A stretch of DNA of 64,000 nt, from contig CACKBQ010000001.1 of assembly GCA_902598405.1 (NCBI GenBank), positions 1,456 through 65,455 on the forward strand, written 5' to 3'. This document shows, in pieces, positions 24,809 through 38,441 of the stretch. A program made the translations under genes and the position numbers. Numbering within the stretch: the stretch's first letter is position 1; the number at the start of each line of letters is the position of its first letter. Below the pieces are notes generated by a model. That model was not told the DNA's origin, ran no database searches, and saw only the letters and a program-made list of their open reading frames with translations. The stretch comes from an uncultured Pelagibacteraceae bacterium (GTDB taxonomy: Bacteria; Pseudomonadota; Alphaproteobacteria; Pelagibacterales; AG-422-B15).

Positions 24809-25336
24809 TCACAGCATTTTTTTTAAAATTGGGTCTTTTTGTATAAGATGATGATACACAACAGCTCCTAAATGAATAGTGAAAAGAAGTATCAAAAAAT
24901 ATGCTGAAATAACATGAACAGTTTGGAATTGGTCTGCAAGCTCGTAGTTAAAATAGTCAATGTAGACCTTAGATACAATAAAATTTACTTCCTCACCAGA
25001 AAGTAATAGTTTTAAGATTCCACTGAAAGTAATCAAAAGAAGCGCAACATAAAATAGTCCATGTACCGCCTTTGATGCTATTAATTGTAATTTATTTACA
25101 GCTGAGGCTATTGGCTTTGGATTAAAAAATTTCCAAATCAATCTGAGCAATGTTAAATAAAAAATACTCATACCAATAACAATATGTATATTTTCAACTG
25201 TTAATTTAAATTCAGAAAACTCTAAATTATCTAAATAGAGACCTAATGGTAATTGAAATAATAGAATTAAAAAAGTAAGCCAGTGAAAGAGTCGAGCAAG
25301 AACCCCATAAGTACTATTGTCATTTTTAATTTTCAT
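24809..25336 (-). CDS. cytochrome b561 family protein
   Basis: It has four TM helices with conserved His residues (RLFHW..., AVHGLFY, HLGAVVYHHL). 175 aa. Confidence 0.75.
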   Translation of the reverse strand: MKIKNDNSTYGVLARLFHWLTFLILLFQLPLGLYLDNLEFSEFKLTVENIHIVIGMSIFYLTLLRLIWKFFNPKPIASAVNKLQLIASKAVHGLFYVALLLITFSGILKLLLSGEEVNFIVSKVYIDYFNYELADQFQTVHVISAYFLILLFTIHLGAVVYHHLIQKDPILKKML

Positions 25337-25352
25337 AATATATATTTAAAAT

Positions 25353-25805
25353 ATGAAAACAATTTTGCAAATACTGCTTTCATCAACTTTAGCTTCTCTA
25401 TTTCTTGTTTTTATTAGTTTTGCCGACGACCATGGAAAAATTATAAAAGAAAGAAAATCATTATTTAAGCAAAATTATAGCCATGCTAAGAGAATGTCTG
25501 CAGAAATAGCAAAAGGTAATAATGATAAAGTAATAGAGCTTTCCGAAAAAATGAGCGTCAATTATGATAAGCTCATCGACCTTTTCCCTGATAATTCAAA
25601 AACAGGTTATGATACAGAAGCTTTGCCAACTATTTGGCTTCAAAAAGATGAATTTAATGCTTTGATGATTGAAACCTCAGACAAAGTCAAAAAATTTACC
25701 CAAATTGCTGCTAACCTTACAGGAGATGAATTAAAAGAGGCTCAAAAAAATTTAATTTGGTCAAGTTGCAAAGCTTGCCATGATAAATTTAGAATGCCTC
25801 ACTAG
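25353..25805 (+). CDS. class II cytochrome c (c'/c556-type)
   Basis: It has a signal peptide, a helical-bundle-sized mature protein, and a single C-terminal heme motif CKACH. Confidence 0.75.
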   Translation: MKTILQILLSSTLASLFLVFISFADDHGKIIKERKSLFKQNYSHAKRMSAEIAKGNNDKVIELSEKMSVNYDKLIDLFPDNSKTGYDTEALPTIWLQKDEFNALMIETSDKVKKFTQIAANLTGDELKEAQKNLIWSSCKACHDKFRMPH

Positions 25806-31580: not shown

Positions 31581-31808
31581 ATGAACGAAGAAAATAAAAA
31601 GAAAGTATGGAAACTAATACAAAAAACTGGTGACGAGTTAAAAGGAAAACTACCCGAACACCCATCACATCCAAAAGGTCGTAATCCATACGCCCACATA
31701 GCATTAGAGATTAAGAACCATTTTGGAATGTCTTATAGTGAAATTACAGATGAACGAATACCTGAGCTTGAAAAATTTATATTTTATATTCGTGATAACC
31801 CAAAATAA
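31581..31808 (+). CDS. hypothetical small protein (75 aa)
   Basis: It is an ORF with an ATG start and has no recognisable family. It is divergent from the putative wHTH gene. Confidence 0.4.
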   Translation: MNEENKKKVWKLIQKTGDELKGKLPEHPSHPKGRNPYAHIALEIKNHFGMSYSEITDERIPELEKFIFYIRDNPK

Positions 31809-31815
31809 CGAATTT

Positions 31816-32664
31816 TTAGGGTTTCCACTCTGGTCTTCCAAAAAAAGAAAGAAACTTTTCTTTAGCGGTTGTTGATACTTTGAAATCAGAGATCATTTGT
31901 CCCCAAAACATAAATGTTATTTTGATAGGATTGTATGTTTTGACATTATCCCTAATTCCAAATTTTACAGGCTCAATTTCCTCTGCAAAAGTTCCAAATA
32001 ATCTGTCCCAAATGATTAGTAAGTTGCCATAATTTCTATCTATGTAACACTCGTTGCTTCCATGATGAACCCTGTGTGCAGACGGAGTAACAAAAATATA
32101 TTCCAAGATACCTAATCTTCTAATCCATTGTGTATGCCCAATAACACCCCAGAGCGTTGAGGCTACACCTGCTACAGCTGTGATAATTGGGTCAAACCCA
32201 ACTAATGGCATGAATATAAAAAAGGGTACTTTAGTTATAGGTCCAAACCAGGCCTGTCTCAAAGAAACAGTGAAATTCATTTCTTCACTTGAATGATGAT
32301 TCATATGAACAGCCCACATAAATCGTACTCTGTGAGAGAAGCGATGATACCAGTAGTATACAAAATCAATCATTACAAATGTAGCAAGCCACACAGCCCA
32401 TATTGGAAGGAGATCATTTACTGTGATGAATCTAAATTTATATAGATAAACGTATATTAAAAAAATTGAGCTTTTAGTCAGAAGCCCAATCAAAAAATTT
32501 CCACTCAACAGACCTAGTCCTGCAAAGGTATCACTTAATTTGTAAAAATTTAGTCCCTTCACAGATGAATAAATTACTTCAGCTGTAATAAGCAGTAAAA
32601 CAATTGGTATCCCGTAAGTATATACGTCTAATTCAGTCATAATCTCTATTGAAATATATATCAT
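31816..32664 (-). CDS. fatty-acid hydroxylase / sterol desaturase superfamily membrane enzyme
   Basis: It has three His boxes: HRFSHRV, HMNHHSS and HRVHHG. It is an integral membrane protein. Confidence 0.85.
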   Translation of the reverse strand: MIYISIEIMTELDVYTYGIPIVLLLITAEVIYSSVKGLNFYKLSDTFAGLGLLSGNFLIGLLTKSSIFLIYVYLYKFRFITVNDLLPIWAVWLATFVMIDFVYYWYHRFSHRVRFMWAVHMNHHSSEEMNFTVSLRQAWFGPITKVPFFIFMPLVGFDPIITAVAGVASTLWGVIGHTQWIRRLGILEYIFVTPSAHRVHHGSNECYIDRNYGNLLIIWDRLFGTFAEEIEPVKFGIRDNVKTYNPIKITFMFWGQMISDFKVSTTAKEKFLSFFGRPEWKP

Positions 32665-32684
32665 TAGAATTATTTAGGAAAAGT

Positions 32685-33269
32685 ATGAAAAATATATTCT
32701 TTACAATTTTATTAAGCTTCTGTCTGACTGTTACTGTATTAGCTAAAAATGACGGTGGAGGTGGTAATAGTGGGGGCAATTCAGGAGGCAATTCGGGTGG
32801 AAATTCCGGTGGTAATTCAGGTGGAAATTCCAGTAGTAATTCTGGAGGTAGCTCAAACGGCAATGGAGGAGGAGGTCATTATTCAGGTAGCACTGGATAT
32901 GATAAAGAGCTAAAACGCATCTTGTTTGAAATTGAAAAAAATGAAAACTATGATGGTGCTTTAAAAGACCTTGAAGTTTATGTATACGAAAACCCTCAAA
33001 ATGCAAATGGATGGAATCTGATTGGTTTCGCAAGTAGAAAACTTGGGAAATTTGATGATGCTGAGCTTTATTATAATACAGGTCTAGAGATCGAACCACA
33101 GCATGATGATATACTAGCTTATCAAGGTGAGCTTTATCTACAGACCAATAGATATGAAAAAGCACTTGAAAATTTAGCTATACTTACTGAATTGTGCACG
33201 TTTAATTGCTCAGAAAAAAAAGAATTGGCCGAGGCTATTAAAAATTACGAAACTGAGAATAATTTATAA
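32685..33269 (+). CDS. secreted TPR-repeat protein with a Gly/Asn/Ser repeat linker
   Basis: ATG 32685 follows AGGAAAAG. The signal peptide is MKNIFFTILLSFCLTVTVLA, followed by (GGNS)x6 and then TPR-like helices (GWNLIGFASRKLGKFDDAELYY...). Confidence 0.8.
   Translation: MKNIFFTILLSFCLTVTVLAKNDGGGGNSGGNSGGNSGGNSGGNSGGNSSSNSGGSSNGNGGGGHYSGSTGYDKELKRILFEIEKNENYDGALKDLEVYVYENPQNANGWNLIGFASRKLGKFDDAELYYNTGLEIEPQHDDILAYQGELYLQTNRYEKALENLAILTELCTFNCSEKKELAEAIKNYETENNL
32754..32877 (+). repeat. imperfect 12-nt tandem repeat encoding GGNS units
   Basis: The units are ggt ggt aat agt / ggg ggc aat tca / gga ggc aat tcg / ggt gga aat tcc / ggt ggt aat tca / ggt gga aat tcc / agt agt aat tct ... Confidence 0.9.
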
Positions 33270-33321
33270 CTTGTTGATTTATTTGTCTGGTCAACTAATC
33301 TTTTATAAATAAAGTTTTGTT

Positions 33322-33540
33322 ATGATAAAAGTCTTAGTTTTTTTTGTGCTTGGGGCAGCAACCTTATACTTTATTATACGAGCTCTTGTTAATACAGAGC
33401 CAGGTAAATTATCTCGAGTTATAAAAATAATTATATTTGCAGTTATAATAATTGCAGTTGTTTTTATGTTAACAAGAGGTAACCTTGGGTTTCTTGCTCC
33501 TATTATAGGTCTTGCAAGAAGATTGTTAGTGGGTTTTTAG
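33322..33540 (+). CDS. small membrane protein (72 aa, 2 TM)
   Basis: It has two hydrophobic helices separated by TEPGKLSR. It ends 5 nt before the next gene. Confidence 0.5.
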   Translation: MIKVLVFFVLGAATLYFIIRALVNTEPGKLSRVIKIIIFAVIIIAVVFMLTRGNLGFLAPIIGLARRLLVGF

Positions 33541-33545
33541 ATATA

Positions 33546-35204
33546 ATGTTTAACATTAAAAAAAGTTTTATAATTACTATTTTCTTTTTGTCATCTTTTA
33601 TTTTTTTTACTTCATGCGATAATGATCCAAACCAGTCTGCTGCATTTACCGGAGTACGAGTAATTGATAATTCTTATTCTCCTCCTGTTGTTAGAATAAA
33701 TGAGGGAGGTAAGGTAAGATTTAATAATTGGGGTAATAATCCGCATAATGTTATTGCTGTGGATGAAACTTGGGGTTCATACGAAGAAATACCAAAAGGT
33801 GACTACCTAGATATTACTTATGAATCTGAGGGGTTATACAAATATTTATGTTCATTTCACGCATCGCCTGATGGTGAGTGGGGAATGGTAGGTTCTGTTG
33901 TTGTCGGCGATATTAATTATGAAGATTATACAAACTTTTCAAAAATGGACGTAGTAAAATCTTTCTCTGGGTCTGTGAGAAATGTACCTGACGATTATGA
34001 AACAATTCAAGATGCAGTTAATGCATCAAATCCAGGGGACTTAATTCTTATTAAACCTGGGGTTTACTATGAAGAAGTTGTTGTGAATGTTCCATCAATA
34101 ACAATTCGTGGCTGGGATAGAAATAATACAATAATTGATGGTGAGTTTGAAAGAGGTAACGGAGTTCTTGTTGCAGGTGTCGATGGCGTTGTGATTGAAA
34201 ACATTACTGCACGTAACGCATTGCTCAATGGTTTTTACTGGGCAACAGTTAAGGGTTACAGGGGATCATATTTAACAGCTTACAATAATGGTGACTATGG
34301 TGTTTATGCATTTGACGCAGTTGATGGCGTGTTAGAACATTCGTATGCATCAGGCTCTCCAGACGCAGGCTTTTATATTGGGCAATGCTATCCTTGCGAT
34401 GCAATTGTAAATAATGTTATTTCAGAAAATAATGGGTTAGGTTATTCCGGAACTAATTCAGGAGGCTCCTTATACATTATTAGTTCAGTATTTAGAAATA
34501 ATAAAGGAGGACTAGCGCCTAACACATTAGATTCTGAATTACTACCTCCTGAAAGAGAGACATTTATTATTGGGAATTTAATTGAAAATAATAACAATAA
34601 CGATGCTCCTGCCACAAAATCAACTTACTTATCCTTTGGCAACGGGGTTATCATTGCTGGTGGCAACAATAATATAATTAAAAATAATGTAATTGCTAAT
34701 CATGATCTATACGGCGTTATTCTTACCGCGGCAGCTGATGTGAATTATTGGCCGGCCCATGGAAACAGAGTTGAAGATAATCTAATTTTATCATCTAACA
34801 GGGCAGATATGGCAATTAGTGGCGTATCTAATCTTGGTAATTGTTTTAAAGGAAACTATTTTAATACATCTATACCGCCAGGTTTACAGTCTTTAAATAA
34901 TTGTGACGCAGGGTACATTCCATTAAGTTCAGATCTCTCAGGTATGTGGTCATCGCTTGCAAGAATTATTCATGCGAGTGACGGTGGATATCAACAAGGT
35001 GATTGGAGATCTTTTCCTAAACCTGAAAATCAACCAAATATGCCAATTATGGAAAAGTTGTTAAATCAAGGATATGATAAGAAAAATTTACCTACCTATA
35101 TGATCAGAAAGTCTGTAAAGCCAGCTGTCGAGGTTTTTCAACAATTCGAAGATGTACTGAATGATATTGAATTACCAGAAGAAGCAAGAAACTATTTGAA
35201 CTAA
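33546..35204 (+). CDS. lipoprotein fusing a plastocyanin-like type-1 copper domain to a NosD-like right-handed beta-helix
   Basis: It has the lipobox FFTSC. The cupredoxin ligand pattern is NNPHNVIAVDE ... YLCSFHASPDGEWGMVGSVVV (His, Cys, His, Met). This is followed by VPDDYETIQDAVNASNPGDLILIKPGVYYEEVVVNVPSITIRG and repeated N-x-I/V-x-x-N beta-helix turns. Confidence 0.75.
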   Translation: MFNIKKSFIITIFFLSSFIFFTSCDNDPNQSAAFTGVRVIDNSYSPPVVRINEGGKVRFNNWGNNPHNVIAVDETWGSYEEIPKGDYLDITYESEGLYKYLCSFHASPDGEWGMVGSVVVGDINYEDYTNFSKMDVVKSFSGSVRNVPDDYETIQDAVNASNPGDLILIKPGVYYEEVVVNVPSITIRGWDRNNTIIDGEFERGNGVLVAGVDGVVIENITARNALLNGFYWATVKGYRGSYLTAYNNGDYGVYAFDAVDGVLEHSYASGSPDAGFYIGQCYPCDAIVNNVISENNGLGYSGTNSGGSLYIISSVFRNNKGGLAPNTLDSELLPPERETFIIGNLIENNNNNDAPATKSTYLSFGNGVIIAGGNNNIIKNNVIANHDLYGVILTAAADVNYWPAHGNRVEDNLILSSNRADMAISGVSNLGNCFKGNYFNTSIPPGLQSLNNCDAGYIPLSSDLSGMWSSLARIIHASDGGYQQGDWRSFPKPENQPNMPIMEKLLNQGYDKKNLPTYMIRKSVKPAVEVFQQFEDVLNDIELPEEARNYLN

Positions 35205-35241: not shown

Positions 35242-35562
35242 ATGCCAGGTGTTACTTTTTTTCCATTAAATGATGTACCGTTTTTATCATTATTTTTTAA
35301 CTTTTATGGCTACTATCTTCCCATATTTTTATATGCAACTTGGACGTCTACTGCATTATTTGATTTATTTCTTTCAAAATACAGAGGCACGACTGGAAAA
35401 GTAATTTGGACGTTTATTGTCATGTTTATTCCTTTAATCGGCTCATTAATCTATCACCTATTTGCAGCTAGGGAGTTAGATGTCACGATTAGGGCGACTA
35501 TGATCTTTGGCGGTATTGGTATTTTAATAATTGTTTTTCTCTATCTCGGTCTTGCCCTCTAA
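35242..35562 (+). CDS. small membrane protein with PLD-nuclease N-terminal (PLDc_N) type domain
   Basis: KVIWTFIVMFIPLIGSLIYHLF is the characteristic PLDc_N helix pair. 106 aa. Confidence 0.6.
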   Translation: MPGVTFFPLNDVPFLSLFFNFYGYYLPIFLYATWTSTALFDLFLSKYRGTTGKVIWTFIVMFIPLIGSLIYHLFAARELDVTIRATMIFGGIGILIIVFLYLGLAL

Positions 35563-35571
35563 TTTTTCGAA

Positions 35572-36402
35572 GTGATATTTGATTCAAGAATTACCCCAAT
35601 TAGAAGAGATTTAGCATCAACTGCATACAAAGCTATTGTAAAAAGAAAAAAATATGTAACGGCAAAGCTGGCTACAGTTAAAAGTACATTTACTCCACTT
35701 TATTCAAATAAAGGTTCAAAATTAAGCACCCAACTATTGTATGGTGAAGAATGCGATGTTTTTGAAACTAAAAATGGGTGGTCTTGGACTCAGTCTCGAA
35801 GAGATAATTATGTTGGATATACTCCTACTATTAATCTAACGAGAAAAATCTATAAACCTAATTCAAAAGTTATCTCTTTAAGAACAGTTATTTATACTAA
35901 ACCAGATATTAAAAGTGTTACGAAAGGTTACTTAAGTTTTAACTCATTAGTTGAGGTAATTAAAATTAAGGGAAAATATTCGCTTATTAAAAATTTGGGC
36001 TGGTGCCCGAGTCTAGATCTAGTAAAGATTAAAAGTAGTAAATTCAATCATATAGATTTGTCAAAGCAGTACCTAGATACTCCTTATCTGTGGGGCGGAA
36101 GAGACTCAATGGGCATAGACTGTTCAGGGTTAATCCAAAATCTCCATCAGATTAATAATAGGCCTTTTCCAAGGGATACAGATATGCAAGAGATATTTGT
36201 AACAAATGAAGTTAAGTATGAAAAAGATCTCAAAGCGGGAGATCTAGTATTTTGGAAAGGGCACGTTGCAATGATGATTGATAATTCGAATATCATTCAT
36301 GCAAATGCTTATCATATGAAAACAGCGATTGAGCCACTAAGTACAGCGAAGAAAAGAATATTAAAATCAAATGGTAAGATAAAAAAGCTTGGAAGATTGT
36401 AA
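35572..36402 (+). CDS. NlpC/P60-family peptidoglycan peptidase with N-terminal SH3b-like domains
   Basis: It has a GTG start. The catalytic Cys lies in GGRDSMGIDCSGLIQ and the His residues in GHVAMMI..IIHANAY. Confidence 0.8.
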   Translation: MIFDSRITPIRRDLASTAYKAIVKRKKYVTAKLATVKSTFTPLYSNKGSKLSTQLLYGEECDVFETKNGWSWTQSRRDNYVGYTPTINLTRKIYKPNSKVISLRTVIYTKPDIKSVTKGYLSFNSLVEVIKIKGKYSLIKNLGWCPSLDLVKIKSSKFNHIDLSKQYLDTPYLWGGRDSMGIDCSGLIQNLHQINNRPFPRDTDMQEIFVTNEVKYEKDLKAGDLVFWKGHVAMMIDNSNIIHANAYHMKTAIEPLSTAKKRILKSNGKIKKLGRL

Positions 36403-37798: not shown

Positions 37799-38353
37799 TT
37801 ATTCAATAGGTGCAGGATTATCGCTGAAACTTCTCAAATAAAGTATGACGTTCGCTCTATCTTTTTCTTTTTTTAGACCTACAAAAGACATTTTTGTACC
37901 TTCAATATATTTTTTTGGATTTAAAAGATATCCGTTAAGTTGTTCGTATGTCCAGTTGCCACCATAGGCCGCCATTGCGTTTGAGTATTTATAATCCTCT
38001 TTTGAACCAATATCTTTATTTACAATATCCCAGAGCGCTGGCCCAATTTTATTTGCTCCACCTTTTTCAACAACATGGCACTGTGAACATTTCTTAAAGA
38101 CCTTTGCACCTTTTTCTATATCCGCTGATGCAAGCAGAGTCTGTATTGGTATTTCAGGTTCCGCTGTAGCAGTGTCATCTGCCATTGCTGCTGATGCAGA
38201 CACCACCATATCTTCAGCACCTTCAACTTGATAGGCTGCTACCTCGGGTTTTTCAACATGATATAAAATCTCACTGAAGTTTGCTAAACCGATAAATACA
38301 AGGGCCACAACTAATACACAGGCTACAATTTTATTAATTTCGAATGAATCCAT
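37799..38353 (-). CDS. cycM: membrane-anchored class I cytochrome c (CycM-like)
   Basis: It has an N-terminal TM anchor (MDSFEINKIVACVLVVALVFIG), the heme motif CSQCH, and a distal Met region (GTKMSFVGLKK). The tracked start at 38407 is probably an over-extension. Confidence 0.85.
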   Translation of the reverse strand: MDSFEINKIVACVLVVALVFIGLANFSEILYHVEKPEVAAYQVEGAEDMVVSASAAMADDTATAEPEIPIQTLLASADIEKGAKVFKKCSQCHVVEKGGANKIGPALWDIVNKDIGSKEDYKYSNAMAAYGGNWTYEQLNGYLLNPKKYIEGTKMSFVGLKKEKDRANVILYLRSFSDNPAPIE

Positions 38354-38441
38354 GATGTCTCTTGACGTAATTAGATAATTATTTAAACAATAACCGAATT
38401 TAATCAAGTTTTTATGCGTCTTCTAGTCGCATAATTTATTT

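Follow-up and report, generated by a model that had tools for sequence, protein, structure and literature searches.

The window analysed in this study, a 64,000-nucleotide stretch of DNA from an uncultured Pelagibacteraceae bacterium of the SAR11 group, carries at positions 33546..35204 of its + strand a gene for a 552-residue lipoprotein in which a cupredoxin (blue-copper) domain is joined to a right-handed parallel β-helix marked by a near-invariant CxxC motif. In all lineages examined this lipoprotein is tied to a small membrane domain, which is either fused to it or encoded next to it, and in many relatives the gene for a two-domain multicopper oxidase follows. The protein may be a membrane-anchored periplasmic redox module, in which the cupredoxin carries electrons between the β-helix and a copper oxidase, whose place is taken in SAR11 by the respiratory chain; this reading is put forward tentatively, at somewhat less than an even chance. 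The components are singly of known kinds, and it is the combination of a cupredoxin–CxxC β-helix protein with an obligate PLDc_N partner and a frequent two-domain oxidase/SCO1 operon that appears to be undescribed in the literature searched.

Domain architecture and the copper site

The gene was delimited from the list of open reading frames (ORFs) and from Pfam and NCBIfam scans, and its parts are arranged as follows.

33546..35204, + strand: cupredoxin/β-helix lipoprotein gene, 552 residues, ATG start, stop codon included
33546..33617, + strand: signal peptide and lipobox FFTS-C, with Cys24 as the predicted lipidated residue and Asp at +2 (read from the translation)
33645..33908, + strand: cupredoxin domain, residues 34–121 (Copper-bind above its gathering score; profile and Foldseek matches)
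33744–33746, 33849–33851, 33858–33860 and 33885–33887, + strand: codons of the type-1 copper ligands His67, Cys102, His105 and Met114, respectively
33975..34880, + strand: right-handed parallel β-helix, residues 144–445 (PF13229 at 3.6e-10; AlphaFold2 model with a predicted local distance difference test score, pLDDT, of 89.8)
34386..34397, + strand: hallmark C281-Y-P-C284 inside GQCYPC (residues 279–284), flanked by the conserved Y251, D273 and Y277
34881..35201, + strand: C-terminal tail, residues 446–552 (about 107 residues), mostly helical by secondary structure

This frame contains every string on which a sequence-only reading of the DNA had built its description, namely the lipobox FFTSC, NNPHNV with the first histidine ligand (His67), YLCSFH-x8-MVG with Cys102, His105 and Met114, and the β-helix entry YETIQDAVNASNPGDLILIKPGVYYEEVVV...ITIRG, which spans residues 151–189, and the tail lies at residues 446–552. 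The division into a lipoprotein signal, a competent-looking type-1 ligand set, a β-helix and an uncharacterised tail is likewise borne out by hidden Markov model (HMM) scores, conservation and AlphaFold2 (AF2) models. In the HMM searches both domains pass their Pfam cut-offs (PF13229 Beta_helix, 40.1 bits against 25.9; PF00127 Copper-bind, 23.4 bits against a gathering cut-off of 21.2), and Cupredoxin_1 stays below its own. The full-length AF2 model has a pLDDT of 83.7, and residues 140–552 modelled alone reach a pLDDT of 89.8 with a predicted template modelling score (pTM) of 0.91; in the AlphaFold models a short low-confidence linker lies between the lipobox and the cupredoxin, and residues 122–143 form a second linker. 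In an alignment of 18 homologues Cys24 is kept in at least 90%.

As to the copper ligands, none of His67, Cys102, His105 and Met114 varies across 18 homologues from SAR11, Leptospira and metagenomic lineages. In a wider set, with 33–48% identity, His67 is still invariant, Cys102 and His105 are kept in at least 90%, and two sequences have Gln in place of Met114; among the 35 diverse family representatives that have a cupredoxin the ligand set is HCHM in 27, HCHQ in four and degenerate in four. Gln is a known axial ligand variant of blue copper sites. Taken together, the sequence data favour a predicted type-1 copper site that is competent. Within SAR11 the cupredoxin has a ratio of nonsynonymous to synonymous substitution rates (dN/dS) of 0.04–0.06, a rough value because dS is saturated.

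By profile, the cupredoxins closest to this domain are those tethered to copper enzymes as built-in relays (PDB entries 9cck, 6hbe, 2dv6 and 6tfd); the family profile matches the pendant cupredoxin of 9cck at 2.8e-18 and plastocyanin 1bxu at 2e-17, and also matches amicyanin and NirKs with tethered cupredoxins, and Foldseek returns cupredoxin matches at a target-normalised template modelling score (TMt) of about 0.75. The ligand loop, C-x2-H-x8-M, is longer than that of the classical carriers, the aligned plastocyanin having four fewer residues there, and the GMVG context of Met114 still aligns with plastocyanin despite the longer loop. In the NCBIfam scan the plastocyanin equivalog TIGR02656 fails with 25.7 bits against a cut-off of 87.85, and the halocyanin model fails with 30.4 against 93.8. 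Because of the plastocyanin score, and because the domain is part of a 552-residue multidomain lipoprotein in a non-photosynthetic bacterium, the protein is not a plastocyanin proper.

The β-helix is the best conserved domain of the protein. Mean identity to the window protein across phyla is 48% for the β-helix, 34% for the cupredoxin and 17% for the tail, and within SAR11 the dN/dS is 0.03–0.09 for the β-helix (again rough, dS being saturated) and 0.3–0.4 for the tail. Its AF2 model is a strand–turn solenoid, and all of the fold matches for this region are β-helices. Across 124 diverse representatives of the family, conservation is highest at C281 and C284 (95% each), followed by D421 (94%), D273 (93%), Y251 and Y277 (91% each), C433 (89%) and C453 (88%); the G-[QE]-C-x-x-C motif is near-invariant whether a cupredoxin is attached or not, and the Asn ladder of the β-helix (N304, N319, N344, N381, N412 and N437) is also kept. 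Since the β-helix is more conserved than the cupredoxin, and its CxxC is kept in 95% of the 124 representatives, the β-helix is not a passive stalk. For the CxxC itself, a structural disulfide, a metal site and a redox-active pair are all candidate roles. H386 was considered as a third metal ligand beside the CxxC and was dropped, as it is not conserved in the wider alignment. A separate branch of the family (P0224, P0233 and P0235; 748–799 residues) combines the CxxC β-helix with a C-terminal TolB-like PD40 β-propeller, which replaces the N-terminal cupredoxin.

The nearest solved folds are the mannuronan C5-epimerases AlgE4 and AlgE6, with a template modelling score (TM) of about 0.5, followed by PL6 alginate lyases, pectate lyase and phage tailspikes. 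These matches are generic, with identity of at most 17% and a TM of 0.3–0.55 among the top 50 Foldseek matches, and no lyase or epimerase Pfam family scores on the 552-residue protein, so that the similarity to these enzymes is at the level of the fold only.

The β-helix had also been called NosD-like. What stands of this description is the generic β-helix fold and the N-terminal cap, VP..Y.TIQ.AV..A.PGD.I.V..G.Y.E.V, to which the NosD match is limited here and in ten other family members alike. The NosD models themselves remain below threshold, PF05048 reaching 19.8 bits against 23.6 in the Pfam scan and TIGR04247 reaching 26.4 against 300 in the NCBIfam scan with a match to model positions 1–66 only, and no NosD chain is found among the top 50 Foldseek matches of either the full-length model or the β-helix alone. 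Pfam detected no nosZ, nosF, nosY or nosL within about 12 kb on either side of the gene, and none was found in the related loci inspected. The best-scoring curated β-helix model is TIGR03805 (beta_helix_1; E = 1e-20, positions 1–255 of 314), which is not passed either, with 73.9 bits against a cut-off of 141.5; ten other family members score 62–80 bits on it, all below the cut-off. From these scores the family is best described as a predicted sister group of TIGR03805, with no curated model of its own.

Family spread, membrane companion and linked oxidase

Single-cell and metagenome-assembled genomes of Pelagibacteraceae contain copies with 97–99% identity. When one genome per species was scanned with a sequence pattern, at least 591 relatives emerged, and the locus counts given here rest on the best 80 of them, which comprise 34 SAR11 loci (65–99% identity), 32 Spirochaetota loci, mostly from Leptospira (47–52%), and a few each from Gemmatimonadota, Actinomycetes, Myxococcota, Thermoanaerobaculia, Gamma- and Deltaproteobacteria and Multivoradales. 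A further large clade is found in Acidimicrobiia, and among 1.84 billion cluster representatives searched, 592 clusters lie at E < 1e-30. In marine metagenomes the clusters of the SAR11 protein are some of the most populous, with up to 264 member sequences per 90% cluster.

The source databases name these proteins only 'plastocyanin' (petE), 'cupredoxin domain-containing protein' or 'right-handed parallel beta-helix repeat-containing protein', and no functional study was found in the literature searched; the outcome that would have counted against the sequence-only reading, a well-annotated family with a known role, is not borne out, as the family is large but bears generic names. In a transcriptome table for Leptospira the entry LIC12217 ('petE'), which is probably the orthologue, shows mild down-regulation in serum. 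Plastocyanin-like genes in SAR11 are also the subject of a speculative remark. According to a 2025 SAR11 paper, a few coastal genomes have a copper island with multicopper oxidases and a 'plastocyanin-like' gene; this is probably a different gene, as the context described does not match the window.

The small membrane protein that accompanies the lipoprotein is encoded directly downstream of it in the window.

35242..35562, + strand: PLDc_N-type small membrane protein, 106 residues (PF13396, 30.1 bits against a cut-off of 23.3)

This protein is homologous to the C-terminal domain of the 668-residue Leptospira orthologue (BLASTP, E = 2e-11), and the Leptospira alignment shows the fusion point, the tail of the lipoprotein leading into the fused membrane domain in other lineages. 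A separate PLDc_N gene lies downstream in 34 of 34 SAR11 loci and also in the Actinomycetes loci; a PLDc_N-like domain is fused to the lipoprotein in the Deltaproteobacteria, Thermoanaerobaculia and Multivoradales loci, and the Gemmatimonadota and Myxococcota loci carry a fused C-terminal membrane anchor that is less PLDc_N-like. In Leptospiraceae two PLDc_N units are observed, one fused to the β-helix protein and followed by a free copy of about 100 residues (L081/L082, 8001..12142; L205, 4685..8657), and the presence of two units per operon suggests that the membrane domains work as a pair there.

Asp at +2 is the inner-membrane retention signal of lipoproteins under the Escherichia coli rule. 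Since the protein is constantly tied to a small membrane domain, is lipid-anchored and, in SAR11, has Asp at this position, we infer that it is placed at the periplasmic face of the cytoplasmic membrane.

In many lineages the gene directly after the PLDc_N gene encodes a protein of about 340 residues with a twin-arginine signal, Cu-oxidase_3 and Cu-oxidase_2 domains and all four HxH/HCH ligand motifs, and its best PDB match is the Arthrobacter two-domain multicopper oxidase 3gdc (1.7e-58), followed by 7rab and 9cck. With linkage defined as a tblastn match within 3.5 kb downstream of the β-helix gene, the oxidase is found in 30 of the 32 Spirochaetota loci, in six of the seven Gemmatimonadota loci and in the Gammaproteobacteria, Deltaproteobacteria and Myxococcota loci; in the two remaining Spirochaetota loci the sequence breaks off less than 600 bp beyond the gene. 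SCO1/SenC then follows in 26 of the 32 Spirochaetota loci. The same linkage is seen on contigs retrieved by exact protein look-up (L081–L083 and L205–L208). A DNA pattern for the oxidase motif YMFHPHQ added at least 13 independent metagenome contigs, ten of which show the order β-helix, PLDc_N, oxidase, two of which have no detectable PLDc_N and one of which starts at PLDc_N. The survey of distribution and neighbours that the sequence-only reading had called for describes a wide family in which PLDc_N is universal and an oxidase directly downstream is frequent, not universal. That reading had left the partner of the fusion unexplained; PLDc_N as universal companion and the oxidase, with or without SCO1, downstream in many lineages now supply part of an answer, whereas the oxidase is missing from the SAR11 loci and the puzzle persists for this window.

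Two kinds of apparent β-helix/oxidase fusion were set aside. Those of 650–950 residues (L076, L077, L079 and L080) are artefacts, wrong-frame read-throughs in high-GC loci whose N-terminal parts are Arg/Gly/Ala-rich nonsense. The second, P0263 (1266 residues), has the order cupredoxin, three-domain multicopper oxidase, multi-helix hydrophobic block and CxxC β-helix; since the hydrophobic block is internal and the β-helix is preceded by a second signal-like peptide, this protein was counted as adjacency only rather than as a Rosetta-stone fusion, and this adjacency, maybe a gene read-through, is to a different oxidase class.

Several other features of the related loci were observed. A second two-domain oxidase subfamily sharing YMFHPHQ occurs on low- to mid-GC contigs (L085, L093, L100, L109–L111, L115, L126, L131, L148 and others), with 35–42% identity to the Leptospira oxidase and no β-helix/PLDc_N neighbour, and one of its contigs, from a marine assembly, has 147x coverage. 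In two unrelated contigs (L083, 6266..7144; L084, 1400..2368) a response-regulator/GGDEF (diguanylate cyclase) gene lies immediately upstream of the cupredoxin/β-helix gene, overlapping its start in L083, so that a link to cyclic di-GMP is possible. In Acidimicrobiia the gene lies directly after that for an M17 leucyl aminopeptidase (L209, 5754..8641; L210, 5488..8308), the two overlapping in L209, and the Acidimicrobiia orthologue P0145 (435 residues) has lost the cupredoxin with its genomic context unchanged.

The locus in SAR11

The conserved SAR11 block consists of the genes for the β-helix protein, PLDc_N and an NlpC/P60 peptidase on the same strand, followed by an MFS transporter gene (− strand), a gene for a 202-residue c-type cytochrome (− strand) and kdsB. 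The gaps are 37 nt between the lipoprotein and PLDc_N genes and 9 nt between the PLDc_N and NlpC/P60 genes. Besides the pair itself, the neighbours concerned are the following.

33322..33540, + strand: 72-residue ORF with two predicted membrane helices, 5 nt upstream of the lipoprotein gene; no Pfam hit; present only in the closest SAR11 relatives
35572..36402, + strand: NlpC/P60 + SH3 cell-wall peptidase (Pfam), adjoining the lipoprotein/PLDc_N pair throughout the SAR11 subclades examined, but not outside SAR11
37799..38407, − strand: c-type cytochrome, 202 residues (PF00034), syntenic in all SAR11 subclades

With its 9-nt gap, the NlpC/P60 gene is probably co-transcribed with the PLDc_N gene, and it is uncertain whether it belongs to the functional unit. 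No terminator was found between the pair and the NlpC/P60 gene; the promoter/terminator scan performed at chance level and has no bearing on operon structure. The 72-residue ORF is probably not part of the core unit. By its proximity, the 202-residue cytochrome may be named, speculatively, as a candidate redox partner in SAR11. The remaining surroundings of the gene are housekeeping genes. The sequence-only reading had seen no copper-enzyme or nos gene in the window; in agreement with this, Pfam detects none within about 12 kb on each side, and tblastn of the whole window with the multicopper oxidase and SCO1 of relatives gave no match.

Upstream of the copper protein, a fatty-acid hydroxylase gene, a TPR protein gene and the 72-residue ORF (31816..33540) lie between it and a 75-residue hypothetical ORF (31581..31808). 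The TPR gene (32649..33269, + strand) encodes a predicted secreted or lipoprotein-like protein of 206 residues with a low-complexity (GGNS)n repeat (GGGGNSGGNSGGNSGGNSGGNSGGNSSSNSGGSSNGNGGGG) as its N-terminal third, and its start codon, TTG, overlaps the last part of the divergent gene for the fatty-acid hydroxylase. In other SAR11 subclades (comparison with L025–L032) the 75-residue ORF lies directly upstream of the copper protein, and the three genes therefore look like a small subclade-specific insertion. Farther away, 8 kb upstream of the copper protein, is a divergent pair of genes for cytochrome b561 (24809..25336, − strand) and cytochrome c' (25353..25805, + strand).

Possible function and comparison with known systems

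The proposed redox module would work as follows. The N-terminal lipid anchor and the association with PLDc_N would tether the protein at the periplasmic face of the cytoplasmic membrane, where the cupredoxin would bind one type-1 (blue) copper and serve as a one-electron relay. The β-helix would probably be the working domain that binds or transforms a periplasmic substrate or partner, through the conserved stripe of Y251, D273, Y277 and C281-x-x-C284. In lineages with the oxidase, the cupredoxin would most likely trade electrons with the type-1 copper of the oxidase and onward to O2; in SAR11 it would most likely do so with the respiratory chain, via a c-type cytochrome or cytochrome oxidase. 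Since both the cupredoxin and the β-helix have a dN/dS below 0.1 in SAR11 without a linked oxidase, the relay must have another partner there. A more specific form of this proposal, in which the CxxC β-helix is a new periplasmic redox-active domain (for example a thiol, disulfide or small-molecule oxidoreductase) whose electrons pass via the blue-copper relay to the two-domain oxidase or to the SAR11 respiratory chain, is considered unlikely; if it were true, the oxidase lineages would have a self-contained periplasmic substrate:O2 oxidase system, and SAR11, the most abundant heterotroph of the ocean, would gain a previously unrecognised energy-yielding or detoxifying oxidation.

Several points weigh against the redox module. 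About 70% of the family representatives (89 of the 124) have no cupredoxin region, so the β-helix does not intrinsically need a copper relay; together with the persistence of G-Q/E-C-x-x-C with or without the cupredoxin, this marks the β-helix as an autonomous, constrained unit to which the cupredoxin is an accessory in a subset of members. The oxidase linkage is absent from 34 of 34 SAR11 loci (8 kb on each side) and, by tblastn, from the whole 64-kb window, and the oxidase is also unlinked in the Acidimicrobiia, Actinomycetes, Thermoanaerobaculia and Multivoradales loci and in L084. A purely structural role as disulfides is conceivable both for the CxxC and for the C433/C453 pair, and gene adjacency suits a maturation role equally well. 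As for an unlinked oxidase in SAR11, no SAR11-like copy was seen among the YMFHPHQ-pattern metagenome matches listed, though many triad loci (β-helix protein, PLDc_N and oxidase) were. In a protein search with a low-GC oxidase, likewise non-exhaustive, no marine cluster that was both abundant and AT-rich turned up, and all four of the candidates inspected for AT-richness or marine source sat in triad loci. These results suggest, but do not prove, that the oxidase is absent from SAR11.

The maturation role just mentioned takes the protein to be a copper-handling factor analogous to NosD, the β-helix docking on a Tat-exported (twin-arginine-translocated) apo copper enzyme and delivering Cu(I) via the CxxC with SCO1 as co-chaperone, or else a copper-homeostasis component, like PcoC/PcoD beside PcoA. 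Its target would be the neighbouring multicopper oxidase in most lineages and another cuproenzyme, for example cytochrome oxidase, in SAR11. Genes for a Tat-exported multicopper oxidase and for SCO1 (the latter in 26 of the 32 Spirochaetota loci) are conserved neighbours, which fits this role, as do the fold class shared with NosD, the weak N-terminal matches to NosD models and the near-invariant CxxC, which is a classic Cu(I)-binding motif; a set of membrane protein, periplasmic copper-domain protein and oxidase also recalls the Pco/Cop systems. However, type-1 sites hold their copper tightly and serve electron transfer, not chaperoning, and the predicted one here is under purifying selection even where no oxidase is linked; every test of NosD membership failed (HMM cut-offs, nos genes within about 12 kb, the 50 nearest folds), no copper-responsive regulator adjoins the loci examined, and the operon already has a dedicated chaperone in SCO1. 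A copper-handling role is the main rival to the redox module, and is regarded as rather doubtful.

It is quite unlikely that the protein is instead an envelope glycan enzyme, with the β-helix as a polysaccharide- or peptidoglycan-binding domain of lyase or epimerase type and the cupredoxin in an accessory or regulatory role. Such an enzyme would suit the nearest solved folds (AlgE4/AlgE6, PL6 lyases, pectate lyase and tailspikes), the NlpC/P60 cell-wall peptidase gene that comes next in SAR11, probably in one operon, and the many members that have the β-helix without a cupredoxin. The fold matches are generic, however (identity ≤17%, TM 0.3–0.55, no lyase or epimerase HMM), the four cysteines among the conserved residues do not resemble the sites of known lyases or epimerases, only SAR11 shows the NlpC/P60 linkage, and the recurrent linkage to the oxidase and SCO1 would be left unexplained. 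Finally, a plain anchored electron carrier, that is a membrane-tethered 'plastocyanin' with the β-helix as an inactive rigid spacer or scaffold, agrees with the public annotation plastocyanin/petE and with the resemblance of the cupredoxin to the mobile carriers plastocyanin and amicyanin, but it is very unlikely, as the part cast as a spacer is better conserved than any other domain (identity 48%, cupredoxin 34%; dN/dS 0.03–0.09), bears near-invariant polar and cysteine residues and occurs without the cupredoxin.

The membrane-anchored redox module and the copper-handling factor would both matter beyond this locus, since a new periplasmic oxidase pathway and a new assembly route for copper enzymes would each inform bacterial copper biology and the copper demand of the ocean. 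The extremely streamlined SAR11 genomes still keep this 552-residue copper protein under strong purifying selection, and Leptospira conserves the family too, in pathogens and saprophytes alike, within a copper operon of four genes that is apparently unstudied. The annotation 'plastocyanin' hides the best conserved part of the protein, the β-helix, and the conserved gene set of β-helix protein, PLDc_N, two-domain oxidase and SCO1 makes a testable system of what had been an orphan.

Among known systems, NosD is likewise a periplasmic right-handed β-helix protein with a similar N-terminal cap motif, and is likewise encoded near a Tat-exported multicopper enzyme and a SCO-type chaperone, a setting that the cupredoxin/β-helix family shows only in the relatives of the window protein. 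It differs in that the family scores below the NosD cut-offs, has no nosZ, nosF, nosY or nosL and finds NosD outside its 50 nearest solved folds; to our knowledge, NosD itself has no cupredoxin and no CxxC hallmark. The TIGR03805 'beta_helix_1' proteins provide the best curated model for the β-helix, but all scores on it, 62–80 bits, lie below the cut-off of 141.5. The alginate epimerases AlgE4/AlgE6 and the PL6 alginate lyases are the nearest solved β-helix folds, yet the identity is 11–17%, the TM is 0.3–0.55 and the conserved residues differ. Plastocyanin, amicyanin and pseudoazurin have the fold and the His-Cys-His-Met set in common with the cupredoxin, whereas its ligand loop, C-x2-H-x8-M, is longer than in these single-domain blue copper carriers and the domain lies inside a 552-residue lipoprotein.

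The closest parallel to the proposed relay is offered by the two-domain oxidase Nmar_1354 of Nitrosopumilus maritimus (9cck) and by the NirKs 6hbe, 2dv6 and 6tfd, which gave the best cupredoxin profile matches and in which a type-1 domain stands as an extra relay beside a two-domain core of multicopper type. In 9cck the pendant type-1 copper lies 13.5 Å from the type-1 copper of the oxidase (PMC11761707). The hydroxylamine-oxidising activity of Nmar_1354 is not transferable to the window protein. Although the cupredoxin of the window protein is tethered to a β-helix and a membrane anchor rather than to an oxidase, and SAR11 has no linked oxidase, its relatives carry a two-domain oxidase of the same superfamily as 9cck as the next-but-one gene.

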